Assembly: GCA_040954595.2 (NCBI GenBank)
Contig: CM082596.2
Coordinates: 1,889,854-1,953,853 of the forward strand
Length of the DNA stretch: 64,000 nt
Source: Balanoglossus misakiensis
Lineage: Eukaryota; Animalia; Hemichordata
Direction of reading: 5' to 3'
The position numbers and the translations under genes were made by a program. Shown here piece by piece: positions 2,750-33,085 of the stretch (position 1 is its first letter; each line of letters starts with the position of its first letter). Below the pieces are notes generated by a model. The model had not been told where the DNA came from, ran no database searches, and worked only from the letters and a program-made list of their open reading frames with translations.

Positions 2750-5700
2750 TCAGCGTTTCCTTGAAGCAATACTGGCACAGCACATTGTGAAGAGATCAAT
2801 TACAAACTCCAAGAATTCAGCGACGGTGATCAGGGAGAGACCGATATAAAGACCAAGCGAGCCACCAATATCACCAATTAGATTCTCAAACTGAAGAACA
2901 ATAATCAGGTAGAGTTGTTTATAATTAGAATAGGTTAATATTCGTAATTGTAGGAATAATGTTCACATGACCATCAACCAGTCTGAGGGCTAGACTATGC
3001 GCGGTTCTAGTATCCCAGTATGGATGATTGGGCCCCAGTTCTTCAGGAGTTAATTTTTATTTTACAAAGGGTAGGTACTTACAATGTAGGCCGGTTTCTC
3101 TTCTACTTGTTCGTAGTTCAGTTCTTCGAAATAAATTTCCAATCGAGCTAAGTTCCTCCTGCCAATGAAAGTTGTGGTACACATTGAATAATTAAGTGAC
3201 AGTAATTAATGAGGAATTACCACGAGCAGACAGATGTATTTGATGGACTAAAATAATGCTCAAGAATATTCAGTTGATATAAAAGTGAGTTAACCCAATC
3301 TAATGGCCACTTTGCTGGTAGATTAATTTTGCCAAGTCCAGCTATTCTAGACAGACTGCATGTAAACCAATGTATTGCTGAGACTACTTTTTGCTAACAG
3401 ACTGTTTCTGTTCATTCATTTTTTTGTTTAAGGGCTGAGTACCATAAAATTGTGCTCTAACACTCCGTCCCCAAAATTAATAGAGTGCATTCTCTGCTTT
3501 TGTTTCTCAAACATTTTTAAACTCACCTGGCAAGCTCACTGTTGGTGATTCCATTCGTTTCGTTGTTCAGAGAATGAAGAACTCTAAGTAATGAATTCTG
3601 CAAAATAGTCAATGTGTGATGTGGATTTAACCTTGTTTTCATTTAGAAGCATTAAAAAATAACAACTCTAATCAAAACATCTCCCACTCCCCTCTCTCTC
3701 TCTAATAATTTCAAATGAGACATTTAATACATCAGCATCAGACAATACACATACACTTACCAGGTAACTCATTGATGGCCAATAAGATTGGGATATGGTC
3801 TTGCCGTACCAAGTTTCCCTGTAAGGACAATTACATTATCAAAGGACAGAATACTTGTGAAGTGAAAAGGAGAAAGTCTATGTGAACAATTACATCAAAT
3901 TCATTTGTGGAATGCTAACAGGTGATGAACTATTTCACACAACTCTTGTTCTGTAGGGATTCTTGGTGGCTGTAAGAAGTACAAACTGCTCTATAAAAAG
4001 GCCATGCTGTTGACTTTACTGCCCTAGAATGTTTCAACTTCTATCCAAAAGGATGGTGTTATACTTACCGACATGGAGTCCTGCATTCACAAGGTAATTT
4101 GTTCCTGTGATGGAGGAAGTACATCAGTTGGCGACACAGTTCTGGAAATGAATTACAAAAAGGAAATTTAATATTCACAGATGCTGGGGAGGTCACAAAA
4201 TTCTTTCTTGGGACACCTGCCTGGCATTAACTGAACAGAAGCATGATTTGTCTTTTTTTTTTCCAAACTACAACTAATTTGCAGTACTTTCAGCAGTGAC
4301 AATTATTCATACTGAGATATTAATTTAAAATTGATAAAAGAAGACTATACCTTGCTCTTTGTCCTGAATCATACATCTTGGCCCATCATCATTATACATG
4401 TCAGCACATTTGCATACTTCTAGCAAGTATCTACGAATGCAGCCATGTTGACACGACTGGGAAAGAAACAGTTCCATATGATTATTGTATTGGTGATGAG
4501 ATTGCACATATTTCAGTTCACCCTCGTCTCCCGGTCTCTATAGTGGTCCAACTTTGACATATATAGAGAACAGTGAATTTGTGGTGGAAGAGGTAATCAA
4601 CTAGTATTAATTACCAAACATGCATAAATAATGACTCCAGATCACTCCTAATCAGTATATCATAATATGACTAATGATATCAAAGGAATACGATATTCCA
4701 GATATGGTGGTCATGGTCATCCAATTACCAAAAAGATTCGAAAATACATGTTACATGAATATTTGTATAAAATATCTCACCTGTTGAGTATATGACCAGC
4801 CTTCATTGGAACTGAAATTGAAGTCACGAGAATGACCCTCTGAACACTCTCCGTATGGCTGTGTAAGTCTTTGGATCAAACCCTGAAAAAGTCAAATAAC
4901 AGAGATGTGCGTAACTTGTTTTGACAGATAGCACTTTCCAATTTTAAGAATGGATATCAAAGGAGATATACCAGTATATATGTAAAGACTATTGATCTTT
5001 CAATGAAGGGCTTAGATCAGCCATTGTAGATACAAGTCAAAGGTAAATTGTCTAATATGGAAAGAAATAGCAAGATGATGATGATGTTGATGGTAGTGAT
5101 GATGAAAATGACTCGTGCAAACTTACCTCCTTTATCGCAACTGAAGTCACAGTACCGGGTTGGATGGTAATGCCATCATCCTCTGGAAATGGTTCGTTGT
5201 CATGTTGATGGATAGAGACCCTCACACCAGACGACTGACCAAAGATACTTATATATTCGTCTTGTTGAGTGAACAGAGTCAACTTTAACCCTGTTGGAGG
5301 TACAAGTATGACAAAATATGACACACAGCTCTTGTTCATATTCCACATGTGAAATATGCATCACGGTTGCCAGACGGCATTTTAAACCTCTCCTAAAAGT
5401 TAGGTTTCGAAGATGCCCTAGCAAAATTATAGTTTATTGGTTTACTCCCTACTATATGCCATAGTTATAATGCCTGTTATTTGGGTTGTGATCACTGCCA
5501 TTATGCTTATTGTTGGCTAATGACTTCCAAAAGGGTCTTTCAGTTCCATTATGGTTGGATACATCCAAGCTCAAAGAAGTACTCTAAATATTATAGCTGA
5601 TAGAGGTTTGAAATACAGTGATCGTGATATCGATAGACTCTTACCGTTATTTGCCCCAGCTCTTGTAGATTCGCGAACTTCTGTTCCATTCAAACCATGG

Positions 5701-6176
5701 TTAAAAGTAAAGCAGTTTCCGTATTCGTAATTAGCAAATACATGAAAATCCCTGAAAGTGAACAAACAGCTGTAAACTTTATATCCTACGTGTATTGTAA
5801 CCGAATTATTCCCATAACAGGGCATCAATTTTGCAATAATCATGATTGTTGCTGCAGACTCACCTGTAACTACATGATTTCTGGTCGAATGTACACTGCA
5901 ATATGAAATCCTCCTTTTGATGACCCAGCTGCAGTATCTCAGGGCGGGACAGCTTCAACACACCTTGTAGGTCACTGAAATCCGGGGTGGAACTATACGT
6001 CATGAAGCCATACCAATCAGGTGGCACTTCGCTTTTGACACGTTCAAAACCAGGGTCCCTGTAATACCCTGATTCGAATTCCTCCTGCAACTTTTCGTCT
6101 AGCAGGTCAGCATACTTTTTCATCCAATCATCAGGCAGTTTGCTCTTCTTGATGCTATTGTTATCACTCATGGTTA
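2750..6176 (-). CDS. C-terminal half of the DEG/ENaC channel (palm, beta-ball, thumb, knuckle, TM2), 10 exons
   Basis: [87 protein letters not shown]2 [34 protein letters not shown]. Stop TGA at 2752-2750. Confidence 0.93.
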
Positions 6177-9100: not shown

Positions 9101-12100
9101 CCCGGTAGTCGATTCCCTCGTGAAACATATAGCATTCTCCCCCTGAAAGACAAAAAAAACCCAAGATATCTCACTCGCTGTTTGATAAAAAAATCATCTG
9201 AATAAGTACACTAGTTGACATGAAACAAAACCAGGAAAAACATTTGCCACTTTGCAGGTAACTCTCTATCAGGACTGAACACATGTACTTACTGTAGGGA
9301 CAGTCCCACTCATCACTCCAGTCATTGCAGTGGTTTCTTCCATCGCATACTAATTCTTTGGAAATACAGAACAGATTGCGACAGAGAAATTCTGTCTCTT
9401 CATCGCAACTTCTGCCACCTGGAATAACAAATGTTGTTAAGCAATCCATTCTGGATTAACAATGCAGCATTCTATTATTAGTGATTGCAAAACCTTGTGT
9501 GATTTTCATCCATGAATGGTGTTCTCTTTTAAACGACTTTCATTACATGTGAATTCTCTCCCTTTTGACATTTTTTAAATTGTTTCCCCTGTGTGCTTAT
9601 AATTATCCAAACGCGTAACGTTGTACATAGTTTTTGGTAAACATTGTAAATTACACCATTGAGAGTTTATACATATGCAAGGCGGTATGAGTACAAGATG
9701 GGTGCATGATTAAGGTGATTGTGCTGACTACATCTGCACTGATGTTCTACGATTAGTAGATAGCCAAAATCAAACATACTGCCATCACAGCGTTGCTGTC
9801 GAACACCGGCATCGCAGAATTCCCATCGCACATCAGGGTCAGTTGTGTAACACCAGATGTTACCCTCTTGGTCGGGATTTCGACAATAATTATGATCACC
9901 AATGCCACTATTAGGATAGTTCTCAGGTGTTCTGGTGTGGTCGTGGGGACTCATATCCACCCATTGCTGACACACTCTTCCAGAAACCGTTACGTTCATG
10001 TGACCACGGTAGTCATATGCGTTGGCCAACGTGTAACATTCACCACCTTTGTGTACGAAATGCAAGGCTTAAGTCAATATTTGCATTATACGTATATAAG
10101 ATCTGTCCTGTCTGAAAATGCTTGAAAGCCTATTTTACACACCAAGCACAGAATACACGTTGACACTATATAGCTATACAATCGTGAATCCTGTTCAACT
10201 ATACCTATCCTTTCATGTTCTTCCAATCAGTATATGCCTATTTCCACTTACAATGCATGACTTATTCACTCATTCAAACTGGTTCAACCCTTTTGGAAGA
10301 TATATAAATATTGTGACTAGGTCATCTAGAAAACTTACGGTAATCACAGTCCCATTCGTCTGACCAATCCAGGCAATCATTCTCCGTATCGCACAATTTA
10401 CTTAAAGGAATGCACATCTTGTTTATGCATGTGTGTTCTCTTTCACTGTCACAAACAGCTGAAAAGACAACCATACGTGCTTACAATGTTGAACTTATAT
10501 TAACTCCTATATATTACATGTACTAGTAAATAAGTGCACAGGTGCATAAAAATGAAAGTTTAACAAACAAGAAAGACACTTACGATACAGGCAAGAACTT
10601 TCATCTGTGCTGTCCATGCAGTCAGTCACATGATCACATACCCTTGACTCTTGAATGCAAAGTGTCCTGTCACACAAGAAACCTCGACATGTTCCTGTAT
10701 GTATAGGAAGAGTTATACTGGTTTGTATTAAAGATATTGAGTGAATATAAATTGTTTGAATATATTAAAACCAAAGTTCAGCCACTTTTCTAACTGGCTC
10801 ACACACAGATTATGCATCTTATATATTATTTCACTTATGACATTATACTTACGGCACTGTGCCAGTGTTTCATCAGAGCCATCATAACAATCTCGATAGC
10901 CGTCACATACTTTGTCCTTTGCAATACAGGTTATTCCATTGTAGCCTCCCTTCTCACATAAAAATCCTTCATCGCTGCAACCTTGACAATGACATACATA
11001 GAGAGAAATAATATTCAAAATTATCAGAATCCTACTGACCATCTGGCAGTCACATTGGAAAATATGATGTATTTTGACTATTTTTAAATAAGTACATACA
11101 TTGTACTGTAAACTATCCACAGCTACGTTTCTAAGTGAGCATCCTTCTGCCATGTTCAATGCATGTATGTCAAAGATGGTAACAACTTCATTGCCAGGTA
11201 GCGTGTCATATTGGCAAATTGAATTATCAAAAAAGAAAAACTAATTTAGTTCTATATCATTACCTTCACAGTATTTTTCATCACTGCCATCAGTACAATG
11301 GCGTATGCCATCACATACCAGTACCTGTTTAAGGCATTCCCATCCATGGTCACACGCAAAGTCATCATCCAAACAAACAGCTGAATAATTAAATAAAGAA
11401 GATTCATGAATATGGAGTAAATGACATATTTTCTTCCATAAAATATCGGATAGATGTGCATGGATGACTTACCTGTTTTACTTAGGTAGTGATTTGTCTT
11501 TGTATACAAGCCTAGTCCTGTCCCTGTTGTTATGTAAGTTTCTGTACTCATATAACAGCTGGCAGAAATTGTATAATCAACAGAATGGCATACAAATTCT
11601 GTTCCCTCCAGACAAAACCGCAAACACTGGTCCAAGCTGACACGTCTCAGGATGTGATCGTTATATGATGAAAGAGCACTGCTGGCGAACTTCGTAAAGA
11701 AATTTCTAGGGAATGCTGATGTTGTAAAATGAATGTTAATTAATTATTGAGGTATTATCTGCATATACATGTATGAATACTTTTAAACAGTGCATTAATA
11801 TGTGAAGTATTCTGAATTTCCCCCTCAACATTTTCTTGTTCATGTATTTTAGCAAATATTTTACTGTCTCAATTCCTGTATAATTGTACAAGTAACAAAT
11901 AAATGCACAAGAGTTGTTATAGATTCATCATAAGACTTTCCATTGCTCAATTACATTATTACTCAAGTAAATCCTCTGTAACACTTACTATCTATGACCT
12001 CGTAGTGGGAAAATGTTGCATCCGCAAGCAAAGAAATATTTGGTGACATCATTGATTCCTCTTGCAACAAGCACAGACCGCTTGTTGACCAATCAACAGC

Positions 12101-15100: not shown

Positions 15101-18100
15101 TTCCATTTCATCACTAATATCCATACAATCTGGAATGTTGTCACAAATCCAGCTGTAAGGAATACGTTTGTCACCATCACAGACAAATCCATTCTCGTTT
15201 TCTGTGGAACGATCAAGTGTAAATTAAACACCGTCCAGTAAAAGTAGACACTTGACTAGGTTGTCTTCCTGGAATGAGCTCGTAAGTTTGCGCAATCATG
15301 GAGAGGGTGCCTGGTTCGCTCTGTTTCATCACTAGAAACTAGTTTCACCACCAGAAGCATTTGAAGCAAAGAAATGTACACGAGAAATGTATACCTATCA
15401 CGGTCAAAGGAAAGACTCCTGAAAAGGCAGGAAACAAACAGATGAAAAAAGTGTGCTTACTGCAGTTCTCAAGTGTCTCATCCTCACCACCATTGCAATG
15501 TTCGAAACCATCGCATTGTTTCTCCTCTGGTAGACAGCGTCCATATTTTCCACCAGATTTGCATTCAAACTCAATCCGGTTGCAGACTACGATGAAACAA
15601 AAACGATAAACAATGTAAAAGTTGTGAACGTGAATCAGACATCTCCAGAAAGACAGTCTGTACTGTCACTATTTTTTTTACAGACAAGAAATTAAATTGC
15701 GAATTTTCAAAATTTCTTCATTTTTTGAAAAAATCATGGGTTATAGCTCATGAAAATCTTCAAAAACGACGATTTTTCGACTTTGCGAATTTTCAAAATT
15801 TCTTCATTTTTTGAAAAAATCATGGGTTATAGCTCACGAAAATCTCAAAAAGCGACGATTTTTCGACTTTGCGAATTTTCAATATTTCTTCATTTTTTGA
15901 AAAAAATCATGGGTTATAGCTCATGAAAATCTTCAAAAAACGACGATTTTTCGACTTTGCTAATTTTCAAAATTTCTTCATTTTTTGAAAAAATCATGGG
16001 TTATAGCTCATGAAAATCTTCAAAAAACGACCATTTTTCGACTTTTCAAAATTTCTTCATTTTTTGAACATGAACATCTTCAAAAAACGATGATTTTTTT
16101 ACTTTGCGAATTTCCAAAATCGAAATTAGGCTCGGTCTCATTATAGTTAGTTTTAATAATACTGACTATAATGAGACCGAGCCATACTTATTTTTTTTAA
16201 AAATTTTATAAGTTTGATCATCATATAATACTTTTGGATTTCTATAATTCGTCAATCACCCCGGGTCAGTGGTTAAGGGTTTGGACTAATGATTGGAGGA
16301 CTGGGGTTCTAAACCCGCCACTGTCTTTCACAATACGTTTTGATCTTTTTGTTGTCGCTTTTTCGTGAAATGTACAAGTTCCAAGTTAGCAATTCTCGAC
16401 AAACATTTGGTGCTTTTGTCTTTTTTGGATATTTTTCATGGGTTACAGCTCATGAAAATTGTCAAAAAATGACAAATTCACGACATTCTGAATTTCGAAA
16501 ATTCGCAAAGTCGAAAAATCCTCGATTTTCGACGATTTTCCTGAGCTATAACCCATGGTTTTTTCAAAAAATGACCAAATTTCGAAAATTCCCAAAGTCG
16601 AAAAATCCTCGATTTTCGACGATTTTCCTGAGCTATAACCCATGGTTTTTTCAAAAAATGACCAAATTTCGAAAATTCCCAAAGTCGAAAAATCCTCGAT
16701 TTTCGACGATTTTCCTGAGCTATAACCCATGGTTTTTTCAAAAAATCACCAAATTTCGAAAATTCCCAAAGTCGAAAAATCCTCGATTTTCGACGATTTT
16801 CCTGAGCTATAACCCATGGTTTTTTCAAAAAATCACCAAATTTCGAAAATTCCCAAAGTCGAAAAATCCTCGATTTTCGACGATTTTCCTGAGCTATAAC
16901 CCATGGTTTTTTCAAAAAATCACCAAATTTCGAAAATTCCCAAAGTCGAAAAATCCTCGATTTTCGACGATTTTCCTGAGCTATAACCCATGGTTTTTTC
17001 AAAAATCACCAAATTTCGAAAATTCCCAAAGTCGAAAAATCCTCGATTTTCGACGATTTTCCTGAGCTATAACCCATGGTTTTTTCAAAAAATCACCAAA
17101 TTTCGAAAATTCCCAAAGTCGAAAAATCCTCGATTTTCGACGATTTTCCTGAGCTATAACCCATGGTTTTTTCAAAAAATCACCAAATTTCGAAAATTCC
17201 CAAAGTCGAAAAATCCTCGATTTTCGACGATTTTCCTGAGCTATAACCCATGGTTTTTTCAAAAAATCACCAAATTTCGAAAATTCCCAAAGTCGAAAAA
17301 TCCTCGATTTTCGACGATTTTCCTGAGCTATAACCCATGATTTTTATGCAAAAATCACCAAATTTCGAAAATTCCCAAAGTCGAAAAATCCTCGATTTTC
17401 GACGATTTTCCTGAGCTATAACCCATGATTTTTATGCAAAAATCACCAAATTTCGAAAATCCGCGAAGTCGAAAAATCCTCGATTTTCGACGATTTTCCT
17501 GAGCTATAACCCATGATTTTTATGCAAAAATCACCAAATTTCGAAAATCCGCGAAGTCGAAAAATCCTCGATTTTCGACGATTTTCCTGAGCTATAACCC
17601 ATGATTTTTATGCAAAAATCACCAAATTTCGAAAATCCGCGAAGTCGAAAAATCCTCGATTTTTGACGATTTTCCTGAGCTATAACCCATGATTTTTATG
17701 CAAAAATCACCAAATTTCGAAAATCCGCGAAGTCGAAAAATCCTCGATTTTTGACGATTTTCCTGAGCTATAACCCATGATTTTTATGCAAAAATCACCA
17801 AATTTCGAAAATCCGCGAAGTCGAAAAATCCTCGATTTTTGACGATTTTCCTGAGCTATAACCCATGATTTTTATGCAAAAATCACCAAATTTCGAAAAT
17901 CCGCGAAGTCGAAAAATCCTCGATTTTTGACGATTTTCCTGAGCTATAACCCATGATTTTTATGCAAAAATCACCAAATTTCGAAAATCCGCGAAGTCGA
18001 AAAATCCTCGATTTTTGACGATTTTCCTGAGCTATAACCCATGATTTTTATGCAAAAATCACCAAATTTCGAAAATCCGCGAAGTCGAAAAATCCTCGAT

Positions 18101-21100
18101 TTTTGACGATTTTCCTGAGCTATAACCTATGATTTTTATGCAAAAATCACCAAATTTCGAAAATCCGCGAAGTCGAAAAATCCTCGATTTTTGACGATTT
18201 TCCTGAGCTATAACCCATGATTTTTATGCAAAAATCACCAAATTTCGAAAATCCGCGAAGTCGAAAAATCCTCGATTTTTGACGATTTTCCTGAGCTATA
18301 ACCCATGATTTTTATGCAAAAATCACCAAATTTCGAAAATCCGCGAAGTCGAAAAATCCTCGATTTTTGACGATTTTCCTGAGCTATAACCCATGATTTT
18401 TATGCAAAAATCACCAAATTTCGAAAATCCGCGAAGTCGAAAAATCCTCGATTTTTGACGATTTTCCTGAGCTATAACCTATGATTTTTATGCAAAAATC
18501 ACCAAATTTCGAAAATCCGCGAAGTCGAAAAATCCTCGATTTTTGACGATTTTCCTGAGCTATAACCCATGATTTTTATGCAAAAATCACCAAATTTCGA
18601 AAATCCGCGAAGTCGAAAAATCCTCGATTTTTGACGATTTTCCTGAGCTATAACCCATGATTTTTATGCAAAAATCACCAAATTTCGAAAATCCGCGAAG
18701 TCGAAAAATCCTCGATTTTTGACGATTTTCCTGAGCTATAACCCATGATTTTTATGCAAAAATCACCAAATTTCGAAAATCCGCGAAGTCGAAAAATCCT
18801 CGATTTTTGACGATTTTCCTGAGCTATAACCCATGATTTTTATGCAAAAATCACCAAATTTCGAAAATCCGCGAAGTCGAAAAATCCTCGATTTTTGACG
18901 ATTTTCCTGAGCTATAACCCATGATTTTTATGCAAAAATCACCAAATTTCGAAAATCCGCGAAGTCGAAAAATCCTCGATTTTTGACGATTTTCCTGAGC
19001 TATAACCCATGATTTTTATGCAAAAATCACCAAATTTCGAAAATCCGCGAAGTCGAAAAATCCTCGATTTTTGACGATTTTCCTGAGCTATAACCCATGA
19101 TTTTTATGCAAAAATCACCAAATTTCGAAAATCCGCGAAGTCGAAAAATCCTCGATTTTTGACGATTTTCCTGAGCTATAACCCATGATTTTTATGCAAA
19201 AATCACCAAATTTCGAAAATCCGCGAAGTCGAAAAATCCTCGATTTTTGACGATTTTCCTGAGCTATAACCCATGATTTTTATGCAAAAATCACCAAATT
19301 TCGAAAATCCGCGAAGTCGAAAAATCCTCGATTTTTGACGATTTTCCTGAGCTATAACCCATGATTTTTATGCAAAAATCACCAAATTTCGAAAATCCGC
19401 GAAGTCGAAAAATCCTCGATTTTTGACGATTTTCCTGAGCTATAACCCATGATTTTTATGCAAAAATCACCAAATTTCGAAAATCCGCGAAGTCGAAAAA
19501 TCCTCGATTTTTGACGATTTTCCTGAGCTATAACCCATGATTTTTATGCAAAAATCACCAAATTTCGAAAATCCGCGAAGTCGAAAAATCCTCGATTTTT
19601 GACGATTTTCCTGAGCTATAACCCATGATTTTTATGCAAAAATCACCAAATTTCGAAAATCCGCGAAGTCGAAAAATCCTCGATTTTTGACGATTTTCCT
19701 GAGCTATAACCCATGATTTTTATGCAAAAATCACCAAATTTCGAAAATCCGCGAAGTCGAAAAATCCTCGATTTTTGACGATTTTCCTGAGCTATAACCC
19801 ATGATTTTTATGCAAAAATCACCAAATTTCGAAAATCCGCGAAGTCGAAAAATCCTCGATTTTTGACGATTTTCCTGAGCTATAACCCATGATTTTTATG
19901 CAAAAATCACCAAATTTCGAAAATCCGCGAAGTCGAAAAATCCTCGATTTTTGACGATTTTCCTGAGCTATAACCCATGATTTTTATGCAAAAATCACCA
20001 AATTTCGAAAATCCGCGAAGTCGAAAAATCCTCGATTTTTGACGATTTTCCTGAGCTATAACCCATGATTTTTATGCAAAAATCACCAAATTTCGAAAAT
20101 CCGCGAAGTCGAAAAATCCTCGATTTTTGACGATTTTCCTGAGCTATAACCCATGATTTTTATGCAAAAATCACCAAATTTCGAAAATCCGCGAAGTCGA
20201 AAAATCCTCGATTTTTGACGATTTTCCTGAGCTATAACCCATGATTTTTATGCAAAAATCACCAAATTTCGAAAATCCGCGAAGTCGAAAAATCCTCGAT
20301 TTTTGACGATTTTCCTGAGCTATAACCCATGATTTTTATGCAAAAATCACCAAATTTCGAAAATCCGCGAAGTCGAAAAATCCTCGATTTTTGACGATTT
20401 TCCTGAGCTATAACCCATGATTTTTATGCAAAAATCACCAAATTTCGAAAATCCCCAAAGTCGAAAAATCCTCGATTTTTGACGATTTTCCTGAGCTATA
20501 ACCCATGGTTTTTTCAAAAATCATCACCAAATTTCGAAAATTCCCAAAGTCGAAAAATCCTCGATTTTCGACGATTTTCCTGAGCTATAACCCATGGTTT
20601 TTTCAAAAAATGACCAAATTTCGAAAATTCCCAAAGTCGAAAAATCCTCGATTTTCGACGATTTTCCTGAGCTATAACCCATGGTTTTTTCAAAAAATGA
20701 CCAAATTTCGAAAATTCCCAAAGTCGAAAAATCCTCGATTTTCGACGATTTTCCTGAGCTATAACCCATGGTTTTTTCAAAAAATGACCAAATTTCGAAA
20801 ATCCCCAAAGTCGAAAAATCCTCGATTTTCGACGATTTTCCTGAGCTATAACCCATGGTTTTTTCAAAAAATGACCAAATTTCGAAAATCCCCAAAGTCG
20901 AAAAATCCTCGATTTTCGACGATTTTCCTGAGCTATAACCCATGGTTTTTTCAAAAAATGACCAAATTTCGAAAATCCCCAAAGTCGAAAAATCCTCGAT
21001 TTTCGACGATTTTCCTGAGCTATAACCCATGGTTTTTTCAAAAAATGACCAAATTTCGAAAATCCCCAAAGTCGAAAAATCCTCGATTTTCGACGATTTT

Positions 21101-24100
21101 CCTGAGCTATAACCCATGGTTTTTTCAAAAAATGACCAAATTTCGAAAATCCCCAAAGTCGAAAAATCCTCGATTTTCGACGATTTTCCTGAGCTATAAC
21201 CCATGGTTTTTTCAAAAAATGACCAAATTTCGAAAATCCCCAAAGTCGAAAAATCCTCGATTTTCGACGATTTTCCTGAGCTATAACCCATGGTTTTTTC
21301 AAAAAATGACCAAATTTCGAAAATCCCCAAAGTCGAAAAATCCTCGATTTTCGACGATTTTCCTGAGCTATAACCCATGGTTTTTTCAAAAAATGACCAA
21401 ATTTCGAAAATCCCCAAAGTCGAAAAATCCTCGATTTTTGACGATTTTCCTGAGCTATAACCCATGGTTTTTTCAAAAAATGACCAAATTTCGAAAATCC
21501 CCAAAGTCGAAAAATCCTCGATTTTTGACGATTTTCCTGAGCTATAACCCATGGTTTTTTCAAAAAATGACCAAATTTCGAAAATCCCCAAAGTCGAAAA
21601 ATCCTCGATTTTTGACGATTTTCCTGAGCTATAACCCATGGTTTTTTCAAAAAATGACCAAATTTCGAAAATCCCCAAAGTCGAAAAATCCTCGATTTTT
21701 GACGATTTTCCTGAGCTATAACCCATGGTTTTTTCAAAAAATGACCAAATTTCGAAAATCCCCAAAGTCGAAAAATCCTCGATTTTTGACGATTTTCCTG
21801 AGCTATAACCCATGGTTTTTTCAAAAAATGACCAAATTTCGAAAATCCCCAAAGTCGAAAAATCCTCGATTTTTGACGATTTTCCTGAGCTATAACCCAT
21901 GGTTTTTTCAAAAAATGACCAAATTTCGAAAATCCCCAAAGTCGAAAAATCCTCGATTTTTGACGATTTTCCTGAGCTATAACCCATGGTTTTTTCAAAA
22001 AATGACCAAATTTCGAAAATCCCCAAAGTCGAAAAATCCTCGATTTTTGACGATTTTCCTGAGCTATAACCCATGGTTTTTTCAAAAAATGACCAAATTT
22101 CGAAAATCCCCAAAGTCGAAAAATCCTCGATTTTTGACGATTTTCCTGAGCTATAACCCATGGTTTTTTCAAAAAATGACCAAATTTCGAAAATCCCCAA
22201 AGTCGAAAAATCCTCGATTTTTGACGATTTTCCTGAGCTATAACCCATGGTTTTTTCAAAAAATGACCAAATTTCGAAAATCCCCAAAGTCGAAAAATCC
22301 TCGATTTTTGACGATTTTCCTGAGCTATAACCCATGGTTTTTTCAAAAAATGACCAAATTTCGAAAATCCCCAAAGTCGAAAAATCCTCGATTTTTGACG
22401 ATTTTCCTGAGTTATAACCCATGGTTTTTTCAAAAAATGACCAAATTTCGAAAATCCCCAAAGTCGAAAAATCCTCGATTTTTGACGATTTTCCTGAGTT
22501 ATAACCCATGGTTTTTTCAAAAAATGACCAAATTTCGAAAATCCCCAAAGTCGAAAAATCCTCGATTTTTGACGATTTTCCTGAGCTATAACCCATGGTT
22601 TTTTCAAAAAATGACCAAATTTCGAAAATCCCCAAAGTTGAAAAATCCTCGATTTTTGACGATTTTCCTGAGCTATAACCCATGGTTTTTTCAAAAAATG
22701 ACCAAATTTCGAAAATCCCCAAAGTCGAAAAATCCTCGATTTTTGACGATTTTCCTGAGCTATAACCCATGGTTTTTTCAAAAAATGACCAAATTTCGAA
22801 AATCCCCAAAGTCGAAAAATCCTCGATTTTTGACGATTTTCCTGAGCTATAACCCATGGTTTTTTCAAAAAATGACCAAATTTCGAAAATCCCCAAAGTC
22901 GAAAAATCCTCGATTTTTGACGATTTTCCTGAGCTATAACCCATGGTTTTTTCAAAAAATGACCAAATTTCGAAAATCCCCAAAGTCGAAAAATCCTCGA
23001 TTTTTGACGATTTTCCTGAGCTATAACCCATGGTTTTTTCAAAAAATGACCAAATTTCGAAAATCCCCAAAGTCGAAAAATCCTCGATTTTTGACGATTT
23101 TCCTGAGCTATAACCCATGGTTTTTTCAAAAAATGACCAAATTTCGAAAATCCCCAAAGTCGAAAAATCCTCGATTTTTGACGATTTTCCTGAGTTATAA
23201 CCCATGGTTTTTTCAAAAAATGACCAAATTTCGAAAATCCCCAAAGTCGAAAAATCCTCGATTTTTGACGATTTTCCTGAGTTATAACCCATGGTTTTTT
23301 CAAAAAATGACCAAATTTCGAAAATCCCCAAAGTCGAAAAATCCTCGATTTTTGACGATTTTCCTGAGCTATAACCCATGGTTTTTTCAAAAAATGACCA
23401 AATTTCGAAAATCCCCAAAGTTGAAAAATCCTCGATTTTTGACGATTTTCCTGAGCTATAACCCATGGTTTTTTCAAAAAATGACCAAATTTCGAAAATC
23501 CCCAAAGTCGAAAAATCCTCGATTTTTGACGATTTTCCTGAGCTATAACCCATGGTTTTTTCAAAAAATGACCAAATTTCGAAAATCCCCAAAGTCGAAA
23601 AATCCTCGATTTTCGACGATTTTCCTGAGCTATAACCCATGGTTTTTTCAAAAAATGACCAAATTTCGAAAATCCCCAAAGTCGAAAAATCCTCGATTTT
23701 TGACGATTTTCCTGAGCTATAACCCATGGTTTTTTCAAAAAATGACCAAATTTCGAAAATCCCCAAAGTCGAAAAATCCTCGATTTTTGACGATTTTCCT
23801 GAGCTATAACCCATGGTTTTTTCAAAAAATGACCAAATTTCGAAAATCCCCAAAGTCGAAAAATCCTCGATTTTTGACGATTTTCCTGAGCTATAACCCA
23901 TGGTTTTTTCAAAAAATGACCAAATTTCGAAAATCCCCAAAGTCGAAAAATCCTCGATTTTCGACGATTTTCCTGAGCGTTTTTTCAAAAAATGACCAAA
24001 TTTCGAAAATCCCCAAAGTCGAAAAATCCTCGATTTTCGACGATTTTCCTGAGCTATAACCCATGGTTTTTTCAAAAAATGACCAAATTTCGAAAATCCG

Positions 24101-27100
24101 CAAAGTCGAAAAATCCTCGATTTTTGACGATTTTCCTGAGCTATAACCCATGGTTTTTTCAAAAAATGACCAAATTTCGAAAATCCGCAAAGTCGAAAAA
24201 TCCTCGATTTTTGACGATTTTCCTGAGCTATAACCCATGGTTTTTTCAAAAAATGACCAAATTTCGAAAATCCGCAAAGTCGAAAAATCCTCGATTTTTG
24301 ACGATTTTCCTGAGCTATAACCCATGGTTTTTTCAAAAAATGACCAAATTTCGAAAATCCGCAAAGTCGAAAAATCCTCGATTTTTGACGATTTTCCTGA
24401 GCTATAACCCATGGTTTTTTCAAAAAATGACCAAATTTCGAAAATCCGCAAAGTCGAAAAATCCTCGATTTTTGACGATAACCCATGGTTTTTTCAAAAA
24501 ATGACCAAATTTCGAAAATTCCCAAAGTCGAAAAATCCTCGATTTTTGACGATTTTCCTGAGCTATAACCCATGGTTTTTTCAAAAAATGACCAAATTTC
24601 GAAAATTCCCAAAGTCGAAAAATCCTCGATTTTTGACGATTTTCCTGAGCTATAACCCATGGTTTTTTCAAAAAATGACCAAATTTCGAAAATCCGCAAA
24701 GTCGAAAAATCCTCGATTTCTGACGATTTTCCTGAGCTATAACCCATGGTTTTTTCAAAAAATGACCAAATTTCGAAAATCCGCAAAGTCGAAAAATCCT
24801 CGATTTTTGACGATTTTCCTGAGCTATAACCCATGGTTTTTTCAAAAAATGACCAAATTTCGAAAATCCGCAAAGTCGAAAAATCCTCGATTTTTGACGA
24901 TTTTCCTGAGCTATAACCCATGGTTTTTTCAAAAAATGACCAAATTTCGAAAATCCGCAAAGTCGAAAAATCCACGATTTTTGACGATTTTCCTGAGCTA
25001 TAACCCATGGTTTTTTCAAAAAATGACCAAATTTCGAAAATCCGCAAAGTCGAAAAATCCTCGATTTTTGACGATTTTCCTGAGCTATAACCCATGGTTT
25101 TTTCAAAAAATGACCAAATTTCGAAAATCCGCAAAGTCGAAAAATCCTCGATTTTTGACGATTTTCCTGAGCTATAACCCATGGTTTTTTCAAAAAAATG
25201 ACCAAATTTCGAAAATCCGCAAAGTCGAAAAATCCTCGATTTTTGACGATTTTCCTGAGCTATAACCCATGGTTTTTTCAAAAAATGACCAAATTTCGAA
25301 AATCCGCAAAGTCGAAAAATCCTCGATTTTTGACGATTTTCCTGAGCTATAACCCATGGTTTTTTTCAAAAAATGACCAAATTTCGAAAATCCGCAAAGT
25401 CGAAAAATCCTCGATTTTTGACGATTTTCCTGAGCTATAACCCATGGTTTTTTCAAAAAATGACCAACTTTCGAAAATTCCCAAAGTCGAAAAATCCTCG
25501 ATTTTTGACGATTTTCCTGAGCTATAACCCATGGTTTTTTCAAAAAATGACCAAATTTCGAAAATCCGCAAAGTCGAAAAATCCTCGATTTTTGACGATT
25601 TTCCTGAGCTATAACCCATGGTTTTTTCAAAAAATGACCAAATTTCGAAAATCCGCAAAGTCGAAAAATCCTCGATTTTTGACGATTTTCCTGAGCTATA
25701 ACCCATGGTTTTTTCAAAAAATGACCAAATTTCGAAAATCCACAAAGTCGAAAAATCCTCGATTTTTGACGATTTTCCTGAGCTATAACCCATGGTTTTT
25801 TCAAAAAATGACCACATTTCGAAAATTCCCAAAGTCGAAAAATCCTCGATTTTTGACGATTTTCCTGAGCTATAACCCATGGTTTTTTCAAAAAATGACC
25901 AAAGTTCGAAAATCCGCAAAGTCGAAAAATCCTCGATTTTTGACGATTTTCCTGAGCTATAACCCATGGTTTTTTCAAAAAATGACCAAATTTCGAAAAT
26001 CCGCAAAGTCGAAAAATCCTCGATTTTTGACGATTTTCCTGAGCTATAACCCATGGTTTTTTCAAAAAATGACCAAATTTCGAAAATCCGCAAAGTCGAA
26101 AAATCCTCGATTTTTGACGATTTTCCTGAGCTATAACCCATGGTTTTTTCAAAAAATGACCAAATTTCGAAAATTCCCAAAGTCGAAAAATCCTCGATTT
26201 TTGACGATTTTCCTGAGCTATAACCCATGGTTTTTTTCAAAAAATGACCAAATTTCGAAAATCCGCAAAGTCGAAAAATCCTCGATTTTTGACGATTTTC
26301 CTGAGCTATAACCCATGGTTTTTTCAAAAAATGACCAAATTTCGAAAATCCGCAAAGTCGAAAAATCCTCGATTTTTGACGATTTTCCTGAGCTATAACC
26401 CATGGTTTTTTCAAAAAATGACCAACTTTCGAAAATCCGCAAAGTCGAAAAATCCTCGATTTTTGACGATTTTCCTGAGCTATAACCCATGGTTTTTTCA
26501 AAAAATGACCAACTTTCGAAAATCCGCAAAGTCGAAAAATCCTCGATTTTTGACGATTTTCCTGAGCTATAACCCATGGTTTTTTCAAAAAATGACCAAA
26601 TTTCGAAAATCAGCAAAGTCGAAAAATCCTCGATTTTTGACGATTTTCCTGAGCTATAACCCATGGTTTTTTCAAAAAATGACCAAATTTCGAAAATCCG
26701 CAAAGTCGAAAAATCCTCGATTTTTGACGATTTTCCTGAGCTATAACCCATGGTTTTTTCAAAAAATGACCAAATTTCGAAAATCCGCAAAGTCGAAAAA
26801 TCCTCGATTTTTGACGATTTTCCTGAGCTATAACCCATGGTTTTTTCAAAAAATGACCAAATTTCGAAAATCCGCAAAGTCGAAAAATCCTCGATTTTTG
26901 ACGATTTTCCTGAGCTATAACCCATGGTTTTTTCAAAAAATGACCAACTTTCGAAAATCCGCAAAGTCGAAAAATCCTCGATTTTTGACGATTTTCCTGA
27001 GCTATAACCCATGGTTTTTTCAAAAAATGACCAAATTTCGAAAATTCCCAAAGTCGAAAAATCCTCGATTTTTGACGATTTTCCTGAGCTATAACCCATG

Positions 27101-30100
27101 GTTTTTTTCAAAAAATGACCAAATTTCGAAAATTCCCAAAGTCGAAAAATCCTCGATTTTCGACGATTTTCCTGAGCTATAACCCATGGTTTTTTCAAAA
27201 AATGACCAAATTTCGAAAATTCGTAAAGTCGAAAAATCCTCGATTTTTGACGATTTTCCTGAGCTATAACCCATGGTTTTTTCAAAAAATGACCAAATTT
27301 CGAAAATTCCCAAAGTCGAAAAATCCTCGATTTTTGACGATTTTCCTGAGCTATAACCCATGGTTTTTTTCAAAAAATGACCAAATTTCGAAAATTCCCA
27401 AAGTCGAAAAATCCTCGATTTTTGACGATTTTCCTGAGCTATAACCCATGGTTTTTTCAAAAAATGACCAAATTTCGAAAATTCCCAAAGTCGAAAAATC
27501 CTCGATTTTTGACGATTTTCCTGAGCTATAACCCATGGTTTTTTCAAAAAATGACCAAATTTCGAAAATTCCCAAAGTCGAAAAATCCTCGATTTTTGAC
27601 GATTTTCCTGAGCTATAACCCATGGTTTTTTTCAAAAAATGACCAAATTTCGAAAATTCCCAAAGTCGAAAAATCCTCGATTTTTGACGATTTTCCTGAG
27701 CTATAACCCATGGTTTTTTCAAAAAATGACCAAATTTCGAAAATTCCCAAAGTCGAAAAATCCTCGATTTTTGACGATTTTCCTGAGCTATAACCCATGG
27801 TTTTTTCAAAAAATGACCAAATTTCGAAAATTCCCAAAGTCGAAAAATCCTCGATTTTCGACGATTTTCCTGAGCTATAACCCATGGTTTTTTCAAAAAA
27901 TGACCAAATTTCGAAAATTCCCAAAGTCGAAAAATCCTCGATTTTCGACGATTTTCCTGAGCTATAACCCATGGTTTTTTCAAAAAATGACCAAATTTCG
28001 AAAATTCGCAAAGTCAAAAAATCCTCGATTTTTGACGATTTTCCTGAGCTATAACCCATGGTTTTTTCAAAAAATGACCAAATTTCGAAAATTCGCAAAG
28101 TCGAAAAATCCTCGATTTTTGACGATTTTCCTGAGCTATAACCCATGGTTTTTTCAAAAAATGACCAAATTTCGAAAATTCGTAAAGTCGAAAAATCCTC
28201 GATTTTTGACGATTTTCCTGAGCTATAACCCATGGCTTTTTCAAAAAATGACCAATTTTCGAAAATTCGCAAAGTCGAAAAATCCTCGATTTTTGAAGAT
28301 TTTCCTGAGCTATAACCCATGAAAATTTTTCATGAGCTCTAACATATGAAAAATATCCAAAAATGACAAAATCACTTAAGTTCGTTGAGAACTGCTAACT
28401 TGGAACTTGTATATAAACATTACACCCTATGTGAAACAACAACAACAAAAAGATCAAAACTCAATGAGAAAGACAGTGGCGGGTTTAGAACCCCAGTCTT
28501 CCAATCATTAGTCCAAACCCTTATCCACTGACCCACAGTGATTTGACGAAGTGTAACAACCCAAAAGTATTATATGATGATCAAACTCATAAAATTTTTA
28601 AAAAAATAAGTATGGCTCGGTCTCATTATAGTCAGTATTATTAAAACTAACTATAATGAGACCGAGCCAAATTTCGATCCATAGTTTCCACCGCATTTTT
28701 TTTTAATGAAGAAATTTTGGAAATTCGCAAAGTCGATAAATGGTCGTTTTTTGAAGATTTTCATGAGCTATAACCCATGATTTTTTCAAAAAATGAAGAA
28801 ATTTTGAAAATTAGCAAAGTCGATAAATGGTCGTTTTTTGAAGATTTACATGAGCTCTATAACCCATGATTTTTTTCATAAAAGGAAGAAATTTTGAAAA
28901 TTCGCAAAGTCGAAAAATGGTCGTTTTTTGAAGATTTTCGTGAGCTTTAACCCATGATTTTTTCAAAAAATGACCAAATTTCCAAAATTCGCAAAGTCAA
29001 AAAATCCTCGATTTTTGAAGATTTTCATGAGCTATAACCCATGATTTTTTTTCAAAAATGAAGAAATTTTGAAAATTTGCGAAGTCGAAAAATCATCGTT
29101 TTTGAAGATTTTCATGAGCTATAACCCATGAAAATTTTTCATGAGCTGTAACATATGAAAAATATCCAAAAATGACAAAATCACTTAAGTTTGTTGAGAA
29201 CTGCTAACTTGGAACTTGCATATAAACATTACACCCTATGTGAAACAACAACAACAAAAAGATCAAAACACAATGAGAAAGACAGTGGCGGGTTTAGAAC
29301 CCCAGTCCTCCAATCATTAGTCCAAACCCTTATCCACTGACCCACAGTGATTGACAAAGTGTAAGAACCCAAAAGTATTATATGATGATCAAACTCATAA
29401 AATTTAAAAAAAAAATAAGTATGGCTCGGTCTCATTATAGTCAGTACTGTTAAAACTAACTATAATGAGACCGAGCCAAATTTCGATCCATAGTTTCCAC
29501 CGCATTTGTTTTAAATGAAGAAATATTGAAAATTCGCAAAGTCGATAAATGGTCGTTTTTTGAAGATTTTCATGAGCTATAACCCATGATTTTTTCAAAA
29601 AATGACCAAATTTCGAAAATTCGCAAAGTCGAAAAATGATCGTTTTTTGAAGATTTTCATGAGTGTCAAATGCACCTCTCCAATTAAAAAAAAAAAAAAA
29701 AACACTTGGAATTTAATCTTGCATTCTCATGAAAATTCTAACTTCTGTAAAACTAAATCGGTGGAAGGGATGATGATTTTGACGCAGTCATTGTTGCAAA
29801 TGTCGATGAGTCTGTCACAAACATTATTAACCTACCACAACCATTTTCATCTGCACCATCATAACAGTCATCTTTTCCATCGCATTGTTTGCTCTCGTCA
29901 AGGCACAGACCGAACGGACTTCCGTACACACACTTAAACTGGTTACTAGCGCACTCACCTTAAAACGATAAAATATATTTTTATTGAAATCGGTTTTACA
30001 TAAAATGTCAAACAACGCTTGTCATTTAGTTCAGGGTTTAAAAAATGTCATCAACAGTGTTTGGCGGTAACCTTCCAAGATGAATATAGAAGAAAGCTTA

Positions 30101-33085
30101 GCTATATGCAGATATCAGAAATACCAACTTGTAAAGCTGCTCAATATCTGTGAAAGTATACTGTACACAGTATTTCATGCATAAAAGCGCCAAGTTTGTA
30201 AAATGCAAAATGACCAGTTTGCATTCTATAATGCAATATGTTAAGCATACCATAAATGCAGTCCTCTTCATCACTTCCATCTACACACTGAGCAGCGCCA
30301 TCACATACCAGATACGATTTTAAACACGTGATCCCGTCACTGCAGATGAAATCACCTTCCATACACGGTGCTGCGACAAATAAACAGAATGATTACACAT
30401 AACACAAGTAGGTATTTCACAGACTGCTTTTGGTTAGCTTTTGTGATTGAAAAAAAATATGTTCGTGTTTTTGATGACGCTATAAAAAGCCCATGATAGA
30501 TAGTGGAATCTGTAATGCTGGTACAAGAATACAATTTGTGAAATTAGGTTAAACACATTAAATCGGTGGCAAGGTTTCAGTTACAGTTAAATCAGTTAAG
30601 TAGGGATATTTTCGAAATTGAAAATGAAGGCAAAATTTTAATGTGCACCAATTTACATCAATACATGTATATAGTTGCTTGTTTTTGATACTGACATATC
30701 ATTGTAATTTAATCTTTTTATTACGATGCAGGACAGGGTCGTATAATTGGGGATAAATACACCTGTTAAAGTTCGGGTGATGAAAGCAATCGTGATCATT
30801 CGTCCCTGCAATTATTGCCAATGACTAATGTTTCCTTTCATAACTGCCATCTTTAATCTACCCGTGTCAATTATTTATGACGTTCGTGAAATTGGAAAAT
30901 ACAGTGAGATTCAGAATTGACGTGGCTGATTAGCACTTGGCAATAGATTTATCACCTTTATTTCTTTGGGGAAGGATGACAACATCAAAGGATGGTTTTC
31001 GGGACGTCAGGGGTGTTAAATCATATCGTCCGGATGGGATGAAATAAAGACAAGACCATAAGTGAATCCAATTGTTAAACAACTATAGACAAGCATTTGT
31101 AATATCAGTACATGTCTTTGTTTGAAGTACCAATGATGTTTGAGAAGCCGGAGAAATAAACACGTTTCTCAATGCATAAGAAACTAACATCGATGTGTTT
31201 TACTATACATTTTAGGGTAAGATTTGTGTTGGTTATAACTTAAAATATCACAGGAGTGGTGGGGGGGATTGACTGTTGGTTTAGGACATGACCATACAGA
31301 GTAAGACATGTATTACCGAGCTGAATGTTGAGTACTATCTACACGAATTTGTAAATTAACTCTGACGAAAACATGACATGTCATAAAAATAATGATTACA
31401 CCTCAATCCTCGATATTCCAATCAATCAAAGCCGACTTATGGCTCATGATTGTGACGGGATTATACCGGTATGGTTATCTCGGAGCAGGCATTTTTTGAC
31501 CATCTTGATTCTGGAATTGGCAGCTCGGAGGTGGATTAGTGACAGACATTAACTACTTTGTATGGCCGTGACGAGTATTGGACGACAACTATTGTTGTTG
31601 GAAACACGGAGTAGATACAATTCAGAGATAGGTGGGCAGTTTTGACACATCTTGGTGAATGGCAAATCCTAGGTTACAACGACCTGGTTATGTTTATAAG
31701 TTCAAACGACCCGCTTGTGATATTAGATTGTAAATTTATGAGTCAGTTATATGCCATGTATATTAATCTAATTTTGCCAATCTAAATTCACTCAATTTGC
31801 TAACATTTAGTCAGATATCGACATCTGTTTGAGAAAAGAAACCACCCCTGGGTGTCCTTTGTCAAGACAAGTAAATACGTCATGGGAATGGGACGATATG
31901 GAGAATTTATGAACACAAATAATATCACTGTCACTGTATTACACTAAGCTAAGCTGTAAATAGGATAGTTCATTATACAAACTCTACAGTTTCCATAAAT
32001 TCTGACATGTCTGTCATTTGGAAAATATGGAGCGTGTTTGCCATTGCGAAGATTTGTCAATCAAATCATTTATCACTTGCCAAATAGTTATTAAATATGA
32101 AAGTCTATTAACTTCAGTACATATTAGTAAGTCAATTAAAACCATTTCATATTTTCACCATGTCGTATATAACTGCAGGTTTTACAAGTCATCGCGGTGC
32201 CCATTCAAAATCAGTTGACAGGACATAGGCAGATTTATAAAATGCATAACCGATAAATTCTGGTTTCAGCGACAGATTGTTGCCAGTAGAGTATACTCAC
32301 CATAATACGGTAGAATTTCTCCGCCTTCCACAGCCTTGGTGAGTTCTTTGTGTTCGCTATCTTGTACAGCTGACTTTCTGAGCATATTCGTGTTGCACAC
32401 TGTAACGGCGGGAAACTTCAGCGAGTTTTCTGAAACAACCTTGATGTGGACGGTTACCGGGCGCTCACGGTACAATTGAACCAAAATGATGAACTGTCGT
32501 ATGAACGCACCGGCAGCCACCAGAAAAAGGAGGGACCATATTATACGTCCAAATGTCGATTTTGCGCCGGCAATTCGTGGGATGCCGTGCGCTGTAGTCT
32601 CCAATCCAAATTTTGTGATGATAGCGCAGTACGATCTGCTTCTTCGATTTCGTTTATCTGTGACTTCATCTTCGCGAGTTGCTCCATCCCCAATTTTAGG
32701 GCCATTTCTGTACATCCAATACTTCTCGTCATGAGACAGATCTATAGTATTTTCTGTCCTGTAAACGTATTACATGTACATTGTGTATTTACAAAAATGT
32801 TGTTTAACTAAAAAAATATAAAAGCATGTTCAGAAAATACTCAAGGAGCTTGGTGTACCATGCCTCAGCATACACATATACGCAGAAACAAAATGTATCC
32901 AGATCTGATGTTCTGATTTCTCAGATCTCTGGGATATCGACTGTATTGTCGCCATGGCCATTACAGTAAAGTTCACAGTAGAATTGATTATCTAAGTGAA
33001 ACAAATTGATGACTTACTTGTCAACATCTTTGGTTATTTCTAGCGTGCTCATCTTAATCCAAGGATCTATGTTGTTCCCATTCAT
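2750..33085 (-). CDS. DEG/ENaC (amiloride-sensitive sodium channel family) subunit with a giant extracellular LDLa/PAN/kringle insert, ~1734 aa, 34 coding exons
   Basis: Exons (minus): 33085-33018, 32758-32301, 30370-30251, 29958-29836, 15586-15461, 15201-15088, 14826-14710, 14138-14019, 13855-13778, 13351-13091, 12834-12586, 12237-11989, 11715-11473, 11380-11264, 10981-10853, 10694-10584, 10458-10339, 10046-9780, 9418-9293, 9142-8864, 7899-7765, 7523-7404, 7090-6956, 6670-6542, 6176-5864, 5751-5645, 5290-5127, 4882-4781, 4456-4351, 4141-4069, 3818-3761, 3597-3527, 3158-3083, 2890-2750. All are GT-AG and give one open frame of 5205 nt. Family motifs: TTAHG, TM1, [37 protein letters not shown], a Cys-rich thumb and [24 protein letters not shown]. 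Confidence 0.85.
6542..11380 (-). CDS. Channel insert, 3' block: LDLa x4, kringle, LDLa, kringle, LDLa x2, kringle (split over two exons)
   Basis: LDLa DCxDxSDE-type motifs in exons starting at 11264, 10853, 10584, 10339, 9293, 7765 and 7404. Kringle motifs YRG..SG..CQxW..NYCRNP..WCYT at 9780-10046 and 8864-9142, and a more divergent one at 6956-7090 plus 6542-6670. All exons are phase 1-1. Confidence 0.9.
11473..13351 (-). CDS. Channel insert, middle block: four tandem PAN/Apple domain exons
   Basis: Exons 13091-13351, 12586-12834, 11989-12237 and 11473-11715 (81-87 codons each) share a CxxxC..F.C.(S/A)V(D/N)..C..Y pattern typical of 4-Cys PAN domains. All are phase 1-1. Confidence 0.88.
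13462..13554. mobile_element. ~90-bp MITE, piggyBac-type (TTAA target site, CCCTT-like termini)
   Basis: ttaa-tcctttcacc ... tgtgaaaggg-ttaa, with terminal inverted repeats and TTAA on both sides. Confidence 0.7.
13778..15586 (-). CDS. Channel insert: five LDLa-type exons (two canonical, one 4-Cys, two degenerate or truncated)
   Basis: 15461-15586 [41 protein letters not shown]. 15088-15201 [30 protein letters not shown]. 14710-14826 [35 protein letters not shown]. 14019-14138 and 13778-13855 lack the acidic SDE motif. Confidence 0.85.
16119..16460. repeat. Left inverted-repeat module (~340 bp) with a 55-bp hairpin at 16129-16183
   Basis: Reverse complement of 28324-28678. Hairpin ggctcggtctcattatagt-N17-actataatgagaccgagcc. 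Confidence 0.9.
16490..28322. repeat. Tandem satellite, 87-bp unit (88-bp variant block at ~17336-20500), ~135 copies
   Basis: Unit ccatggttttttcaaaaaatgaccaaatttcgaaaatccccaaagtcgaaaaatcctcgatttttgacgattttcctgagctataac. Line starts recur at 20701/22441 (20x87) and at 17641/18961 (15x88). Confidence 0.98.
28324..28678. repeat. Right inverted-repeat module with a hairpin at 28614-28668
   Basis: Inverted relative to 16119-16460 and direct relative to 29133-29487. Confidence 0.9.
29133..29487. repeat. Second direct copy of the right module, with a hairpin at 29423-29477
   Basis: Near-identical to 28324-28678 and separated from it by about 5 diverged satellite units. Confidence 0.9.
29836..30370 (-). 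CDS. Channel insert: first two LDLa exons
   Basis: 30251-30370 [37 protein letters not shown]. 29836-29958 [40 protein letters not shown]. Both are phase 1-1. Confidence 0.88.
32301..33085 (-). CDS. N-terminal part of the DEG/ENaC channel (cytoplasmic N-terminus, HG motif, TM1, first palm strands)
   Basis: Exon 32301-32758 encodes [38 protein letters not shown] and [17 protein letters not shown]. The upstream exon 33018-33085 joins in frame (phase 2). The start codon is tentative. Confidence 0.9.

Follow-up and report, generated by a model that had tools for sequence, protein, structure and literature searches.

Does a hemichordate sodium channel carry a chain of receptor-like modules within a single polypeptide, or do separate genes lie interleaved at this locus? 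The question is raised by a 64,000-nucleotide stretch of the Balanoglossus misakiensis genome (contig CM082596.2; here called the window), in which the two halves of a DEG/ENaC subunit are separated on the minus strand by a long block of LDLa, PAN, and kringle exons. We asked whether channel and modules form one protein, where in the channel the modules sit, how widely the arrangement occurs, and what it may do.

RESULTS

One open frame joins channel and modules

Thirty-four exons joined by coordinate on the minus strand, from 33085 to 2750, gave a 5,205-nt frame that encodes 1,734 aa and has a single terminal stop. All 33 introns have GT-AG borders. The N-half of the channel closes in phase 1 at 32301 and the C-half picks up in the same phase at 6176; all 22 module exons between them (3,468 nt or 1,156 aa, aa 176-1331) are in phase 1 at both ends. 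With all phases checked, exon joining bears out a preliminary description of this DNA, which had reported 22 symmetric phase-1 module exons between phase-1 channel halves. The features of the gene are as follows.

33018..33085, minus strand: exon 1, ATG and cytoplasmic N-terminus, aa 1-22; 45% identical to the N-terminus of Ptychodera flava isoform X1
32301..32758, minus strand: exon 2, N-half with HG motif, TM1, beta1-beta2, FPAVTVCN, and finger alpha1, aa 23-175
30251..30370, minus strand: LDLa-1 (Pfam), 75-87% identity in 11 of 11 homologue rows
29836..29958, minus strand: LDLa-2 (Pfam), position-specific in paralogues
15587..29835, no strand: L2-L3 intron of 14,249 nt with an 87-bp tandem array inside
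15586-15461, 15201-15088, 14826-14710, 14138-14019, and 13855-13778, minus strand: LDLa-3 to LDLa-7, the last two degenerate
13351-13091, 12834-12586, 12237-11989, and 11715-11473, minus strand: four PAN/apple exons (Pfam)
11380-11264, 10981-10853, 10694-10584, and 10458-10339, minus strand: LDLa-8 to LDLa-11 (Pfam)
9780..10046, minus strand: kringle 1 (Pfam; alignment to homologues)
9418-9293, minus strand: LDLa-12 (Pfam)
9142-8864, minus strand: kringle 2 (Pfam)
7899-7765, minus strand: LDLa-13 (Pfam)
7523-7404, minus strand: LDLa-14 (Pfam)
7090-6956 and 6670-6542, minus strand: kringle 3 in two exons (Pfam)
5864..6176, minus strand: first C-half exon, finger alpha2-alpha3 with a clade-typical motif, then beta3, aa 1332-1435
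5751-5645, 5290-5127, 4882-4781, 4456-4351, and 4141-4069, minus strand: C-half exons 2-6
3818-3761, 3597-3527, 3158-3083, and 2890-2750, minus strand: C-half exons 7-10

Pfam scans of 31 of the 34 exon translations placed ASC on both channel halves. The exon 2 match (E = 1.5e-20) covers profile positions 3-90, and the PDB matches of this exon were FaNaC, ASIC, and ENaC. The C-half exons after the first (2750..5751) supply the palm, beta-ball, thumb cysteines, knuckle, TM2 with a G-L-S filter, and the stop. LDLa was found on 14 exons (12 above the cut-off, L6 and L7 below), PAN_1 on four (three above the cut-off, P1 just under), and Kringle on four, the last two of which are halves of one domain. 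The insert therefore holds 21 modules on 22 exons (14 LDLa, 4 PAN, and 3 kringles); the module order given in the preliminary description stands, with the correction that kringle 3 is split over two exons. Hydropathy revealed two hydrophobic helices only (~aa 91-116 and ~aa 1696-1729). The earlier observation that the module block contains neither a signal-peptide exon nor a stop was confirmed, as no such hydrophobic stretch and no stop were found in the frame. The 1,734-aa protein has 12 N-glycosylation motifs. In tblastn searches with five orthologue or paralogue proteins of the same architecture, 34 of 34 exons were matched, and the window had no matches outside the 34-exon model.

The intron between L2 and L3 contains, at 16491-28321, ~136 copies of the 87-bp repeat with 98% matches; orthologues run from L2 to L3 unbroken in protein alignments. 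The array is flanked by ~780-bp inverted copies (15699-16464 versus 28320-29080, 86% identity), and array and flanks together (15697-29663) resemble a foldback-type element. An AATAAA on the minus strand at 1934, ~815 nt beyond the stop codon, is a possible polyadenylation signal.

Hemichordate homologues share the architecture

A splice that skips from 32301 to 6176 would also be in frame and open, giving a 578-aa channel, and for this reason the window sequence alone cannot choose between one protein and a nested gene. A homologue search with the first C-half exon as the query gave 11 proteins from 43 candidates (182-2000 aa). Seven of these, of 1,613-1,720 aa, carry ASC, LDLa, and kringle together and come from P. 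flava, Glandiceps talaboti, and Saccoglossus kowalevskii. The same-architecture models, which are automated predictions, span three families and show 52-73% overall identity. Among them, XP_070570506.1, XP_070570703.1, XP_077997546.1, and XP_077868738.1 share the module order at 58-73% identity and are orthologues or close paralogues; all four are automated RefSeq models labelled "LRP2-like" or "uncharacterized." P. flava XP_070570506.1 matches every exon, is 73% identical overall and 50-96% identical per exon from exon 2 on, and groups with the gene at 100/99 on channel columns (IQ-TREE). The N2/L1, L2/L3, and K3/C1 junctions were colinear in 11 of 11 rows, with the exception that P0004 lacks L4 after L3. 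Several isoforms are annotated in P. flava, and isoform X3 lacks exactly the kringle-1 exon; we assume that annotated isoforms imply RNA support for the homologue models. More than 370 Myr separate the lineages of Saccoglossus and Ptychodera, according to the available part of PMC4729200.

These comparisons bear on the possibility that the chimera is an annotation artefact, with exon 2 spliced straight to 6176 and the module exons either part of a nested gene or unused. The open skip splice would allow this, and the 14-kb repeat-filled intron does break up the module block. However, independent models in three other species join the halves via the same modules, some with several isoforms, the three inspected junctions are all colinear, and the module frame runs without a stop or a signal-peptide-like stretch. 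The matches from the exon search included no channel-only form of the orthologue, which is a weak argument in the same direction. Because three hemichordate families share the architecture and the P. flava orthologue matches every exon, we regard a nested-gene artefact as highly improbable. Conservation of the architecture in three hemichordate families is shown by the aligned protein models, and the earlier reading of one ~1734-aa protein is supported both by the open 34-exon frame and by these models.

The channel core is that of a DEG/ENaC subunit

The protein has the features shared across the DEG/ENaC superfamily (Pfam ASC, PF00858), namely two TM helices, HG, FPxVTxCN, thumb cysteines, and a G-x-S filter. 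The HG motif precedes TM1 and an FPxxTxCN motif follows it; the two TM helices enclose a large ectodomain and leave short cytoplasmic ends. Thumb cysteines are invariant in 47 aligned rows, the filter in TM2 reads G-L-S, and pore and palm residues are strongly conserved among homologues. The palm, beta-ball, finger, and thumb fold was found on the relative P0022 (41% identical to the orthologue P0001) and not on the gene's own protein; the nearest solved folds are human gamma-ENaC (6wth_C), Aplysia FaNaC (7yvb), and ASIC1a. The degenerin position is Gly, as in ASIC.

Two other assignments were considered and rejected. LDLR/LRP family proteins combine EGF and YWTD propeller repeats with a signal peptide and a single TM helix. 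The LRP2 label borne by homologues is wrong: LDLa modules are present, but no EGF or YWTD matches were obtained with Pfam in 31 exons and 10 homologues, and the protein has two TM helices and no N-terminal signal stretch. ASIC-type proton gating was discarded, as the position equivalent to His73 is Val by ungapped count from FPxVT, per the ASIC2 alignment. ASIC proton gating needs this beta1 His73 (PMC9949801, available text).

The modules sit in the finger, after alpha1

In sequence alignments, the insert falls between residues 105 and 158 of ASIC2 and between residues 152 and 275 of alpha-ENaC. ASIC2 has ~50 residues and alpha-ENaC ~120 between the matched stretches, whereas the present protein has 1,156 aa of modules after alpha1. 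The AlphaFold model of P0022 (831 aa; pLDDT 78.6, pTM 0.68) has confident channel halves and a CUB part with a pLDDT under 50. It aligned with gamma-ENaC at Z 32.6 (rmsd 3.1, 349 residues aligned), with FaNaC at Z 31.4, and with ASIC1a at Z 30.8, within an overall range of Z 25-33 for ENaC, FaNaC, and ASIC chains. Its modules are modelled after helix 188-195 and before helices 436-503 and beta3. A second relative with only two LDLa modules, P0075 (601 aa), was modelled at a pLDDT of 87.5 (L1 83-90, L2 60-78). In these two smaller relatives, the channel halves are predicted to adopt the normal fold of a DEG/ENaC subunit, with the insert enclosed between them.

By alignment and model, the insert follows finger helix alpha1, at the position of the ENaC GRIP domain, and the placement in the finger region proposed in the preliminary description is supported by the ASIC2 and ENaC alignments together with the P0022 fold. 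The GRIP domain is the alpha1-alpha2 stretch of ENaC (PMC6197857, available text). As described in the accessible part of PMC11026163, finger helices alpha1-alpha3 form the FaNaC1 peptide pocket, and the alpha1-alpha3 corner is important for gating family-wide and is a proposed matrix-tether site. The present insert contains no canonical furin motif (R-x-K/R-R), four minimal R-x-x-R motifs being the only matches of this kind, and furin gating of the vertebrate ENaC type was accordingly set aside.

Some modules retain putative ligand-binding residues

LDLa modules bind basic residues with calcium. The LDLa acidic motif is matched by 11 of the 14 modules; the earlier count of 14 LDLa modules holds, with the qualification that the acidic calcium motif is missing from L6 and L7 and that L4 and L7 have four cysteines. 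A lysine-binding kringle site consists of an anionic D-x-D/E pair, two Trp, and an Arg. Kringle 1, which aligned to K4 of plasminogen at 88 bits, has the D-x-E, W, and R-W letters found in plasminogen kringles. Ten homologue rows include this kringle, and nine of them share the letters, which may form a lysine-binding site of the plasminogen type. Kringles 2 and 3 lack them.

A family with variable cassettes at one site

The C-half of a sea-star relative, used as a query, retrieved 58 proteins out of 1,339 candidates, a profile search contributed the best 150 of 21,335 matches, and Pfam scans covered sets of 10, 17, and 52 proteins. In the Pfam-scanned relatives, LDLa-cassette channels were found in hemichordates, asteroids, an ophiuroid, and a crinoid, and the partners of LDLa were PAN and kringle, SRCR, HYR, CUB and TSP1, F5/8C, or ShK. 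Related amphioxus channels have modules at the same site (F5/8C, Xlink, and kringle) but differ in lacking LDLa. These comparisons place the gene in a family whose members carry interchangeable cassettes at a single site, which is beyond what the preliminary description could see.

A FastTree analysis of channel-only columns included 174 of 196 rows, after removal of 11 rows that were named isoforms, duplicates, or tandem models and of another 11 whose C-half match was short. It recovered the ambulacrarian LDLa-cassette group as a 73-row clade at 99. Cassettes headed by LDLa were carried by 48 of the 49 clade rows with both halves, the other 24 rows being partial; paralogues and near-copies are included, and rows are not independent. 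Support for the group was weaker with IQ-TREE on 58 hand-picked rows: its 30 rows there grouped at 90/56 (unstarred) and stayed on one side of the tree in 92% of 200 bootstrap replicates. Past the CN motif, the first cysteine of the insert follows at a median distance of 32 residues (range 31-56; 48 of 49 rows measured). L1 of the gene best matches the first LDLa, and L2 the second, in 38 of 41 paralogues each, and L1 is about as conserved as the core (non-Cys top-residue fraction 0.55 versus 0.61 in 47 members). Common descent, and not a role in docking, may account for this position specificity. L3, L8, L9, and L12 also lean toward the first or second LDLa positions of paralogues, a pattern that suggests internal duplication. 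When proteins of 946-3010 aa were searched for a possible donor of the four-PAN block, the only matches among 1,293 candidates were 5 members of this same family.

In sister channels that lack modules, the inserts are poor in cysteine, and 18 of 26 contain a furin motif. Motif density is 0.05 per 100 aa in modular inserts versus 0.59 in the non-modular sister inserts, and 16 of 49 modular members have a furin motif. P0044, P0046, P0049, P0050, and relatives have 170-400 aa inserts at the same site that are cysteine-free, acidic or Ser/Thr-rich, and mostly furin-bearing; these proteins are candidate protease-gated channels of invertebrates.

The acoel Symsagittifera (P0101, P0187, and P0189) and the gastropods Biomphalaria and Plakobranchus (P0132 and P0158) also have LDLa or LDLa-CUB inserts in this position. 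The ostracod P0060 likewise has an LDLa or LDLa-CUB finger insert outside the ambulacrarian group. A single origin of all LDLa-bearing channels (36 of 58 rows, a group named after the tree) was rejected at p-AU 1e-29; because one clade for these rows is rejected, the finger site was either used more than once or lost often. P0179, on a separate branch, is a DEG/ENaC protein whose channel halves enclose a C-type lectin domain. P0028, P0043, P0056, and P0080 have 340-560 aa ahead of the channel N-half, with fn3 matches in two; these leaders are either long extensions or fused gene models.

Neighboring genes

Three other coding features were observed in the window. Nuclear-receptor-type C4 zinc finger exons lie just downstream on the minus strand at 319-700 (Pfam zf-C4, E = 7e-14 on 319-543). 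A La-domain gene, which we take to be LARP4-like, occupies ~45500-51600 on the minus strand (Pfam La, E = 1.7e-17 on 49609-49851). On the plus strand, an unbroken Sir2-family frame at 63108-63998 (E = 5e-41) runs out of the window edge and is possibly an intronless gene or a retrocopy.

DISCUSSION

The alignments and gene models above identify the locus as a real, conserved DEG/ENaC member with an undescribed, variable receptor-like insert in its finger, for which database names are wrong or empty. We found no description of the architecture in the literature searched, which lay largely outside subscription journals and whose supplements may list more. The caution in the preliminary description that such insertions might already be annotated proved partly correct: RefSeq and UniRef already contain the architecture, yet without a description. 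Fragments of the LDLa-cassette clade are in the supplementary sequence files of PMC10507113 (11 of 15 files searched), the main text of which contains neither "LDL" nor "kringle" and the alignments of which are trimmed; its available text mentions uncharacterised ambulacrarian channels in Clade B. The accessible portions of PMC9822975, PMC9949801, and PMC9234716 make no mention of the LDLa-cassette architecture. The same caution also applies to lancelets, in which the domain pairs ASC;F5_F8_type_C, Kringle;ASC, and ASC;Kringle appear in the consulted part of the Huang 2014 supplement (PMC4284660) as table rows only.

What might the insert do? We tentatively favor, at somewhat less than an even chance, a built-in receptor in which the module chain binds an extracellular protein and opens or tunes the sodium pore through the finger. 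Gating or tethering by a ligand, as the preliminary description had proposed, would suit the insertion site. Three subunits would assemble and put up to 63 modules on show. The pore would be shut at rest, because Gly occupies the degenerin position, as it does in ASIC. LDLa modules loaded with calcium would then, together with kringle 1, capture a protein that exposes lysine or arginine, LDLa-1 and LDLa-2 would serve as a fixed coupler on the finger, and finger and thumb would move as in FaNaC and ENaC to open the pore. Among paralogues, the ligand could change via swaps of the outer cassette by phase-1 exon shuffling. C. elegans EGAS-1 to -4, which are the named precedent for an ASC channel with additional domains, gave no oocyte current (PMC10424705, available text). 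This silence counts against all readings in which the cassette gates the channel.

Three other roles would fit the same architecture. The cassette could be a built-in tether to matrix or mucus, so that force on the loop moves the finger of a mechanosensitive channel with a built-in counterpart of the nematode MEC matrix proteins. We consider this unlikely, though it accords with several features: the finger corner is the site at which a matrix tether has been proposed (PMC11026163, accessible part), MEC-4 and UNC-105 need matrix proteins (PMC10148893, accessible part), the loop is long and multivalent in a protein with multiple N-glycosylation motifs, and a module order kept across three families suits a fixed endogenous partner. 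On the other hand, paralogues differ in at least nine module types, a diversity beyond the needs of a plain tether, and Pfam found no EGF or Kunitz modules in 31 exons and 10 homologues. Less probable still is a role only in placing, clustering, or recycling the channel, or as a non-gating partner in a heterotrimer, with gating left to ions, pH, or peptides. Separate CUB/LDLa proteins are clustering or auxiliary subunits of other channels, and the many hemichordate paralogues could co-assemble; yet the insertion is in the gating finger at a fixed spacing rather than terminal, and pore and palm residues are strongly conserved. The conserved modules would suit a tether or a localisation role equally well.

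Protease control, which we rate just as low as a purely localising role, would make the cassette a GRIP-like inhibitory or protease-docking region from which a recruited serine protease releases the finger by cleavage. It would accord with the shared interval with the ENaC GRIP domain and with the furin motifs in most inserts of the module-free sister channels, and the SRCR, kringle, LDLa, and PAN combination is also found in mosaic proteases of amphioxus (PMC6337849, available text). Yet the present insert has no canonical furin motif, only a minority of modular members has one, and the minimal R-x-x-R in the K1-L12 linker is lost in Glandiceps and Saccoglossus.

The receptor reading can be extended to the whole family, a broader proposal that we hold to be rather doubtful. 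It would define an undescribed class of ionotropic macromolecule receptors, each built from the channel core, an LDLa-LDLa coupler, and an exchangeable exon-shuffled cassette (kringle/PAN, SRCR, CUB/TSP1, F5/8C, HYR, or ShK), in which proteins, glycans, or microbial surfaces would open a sodium channel directly, at a finger site used more than once in bilaterians. To our knowledge, the characterised stimuli of DEG/ENaC channels are protons, small peptides, proteases, or force; if the proposal is true, large extracellular ligands join this list. The family would be a natural test of finger-pore coupling, and of the tether model with the tether inside the channel, as well as a template for channels with chosen binding domains. 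Database labels can be corrected, and a large family is pointed out that phylogenies based on trimmed alignments would miss.

Comparison with known systems places the insert between familiar arrangements. Vertebrate ENaC shares the place, since its GRIP domain is likewise additional sequence between alpha1 and alpha2 of the finger; GRIP is a short wedge that carries furin sites and is released by proteases, whereas the present insert is ~ten times longer and composed of shuffled modules. C. elegans EGAS-1 to -4 have extracellular repeat modules fused to ASC, as in the present protein, with EGF instead of LDLa, PAN, and kringle, and their EGF block is presumably N-terminal of the ASC part, not inside the finger. 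Mosaic serine proteases, such as plasminogen/HGF and the amphioxus SRCR-kringle-LDLRA-PAN-trypsin protein, use the same module vocabulary as the cassette; the present protein differs in that it has no protease domain and holds its modules in a loop closed by the channel on both sides.
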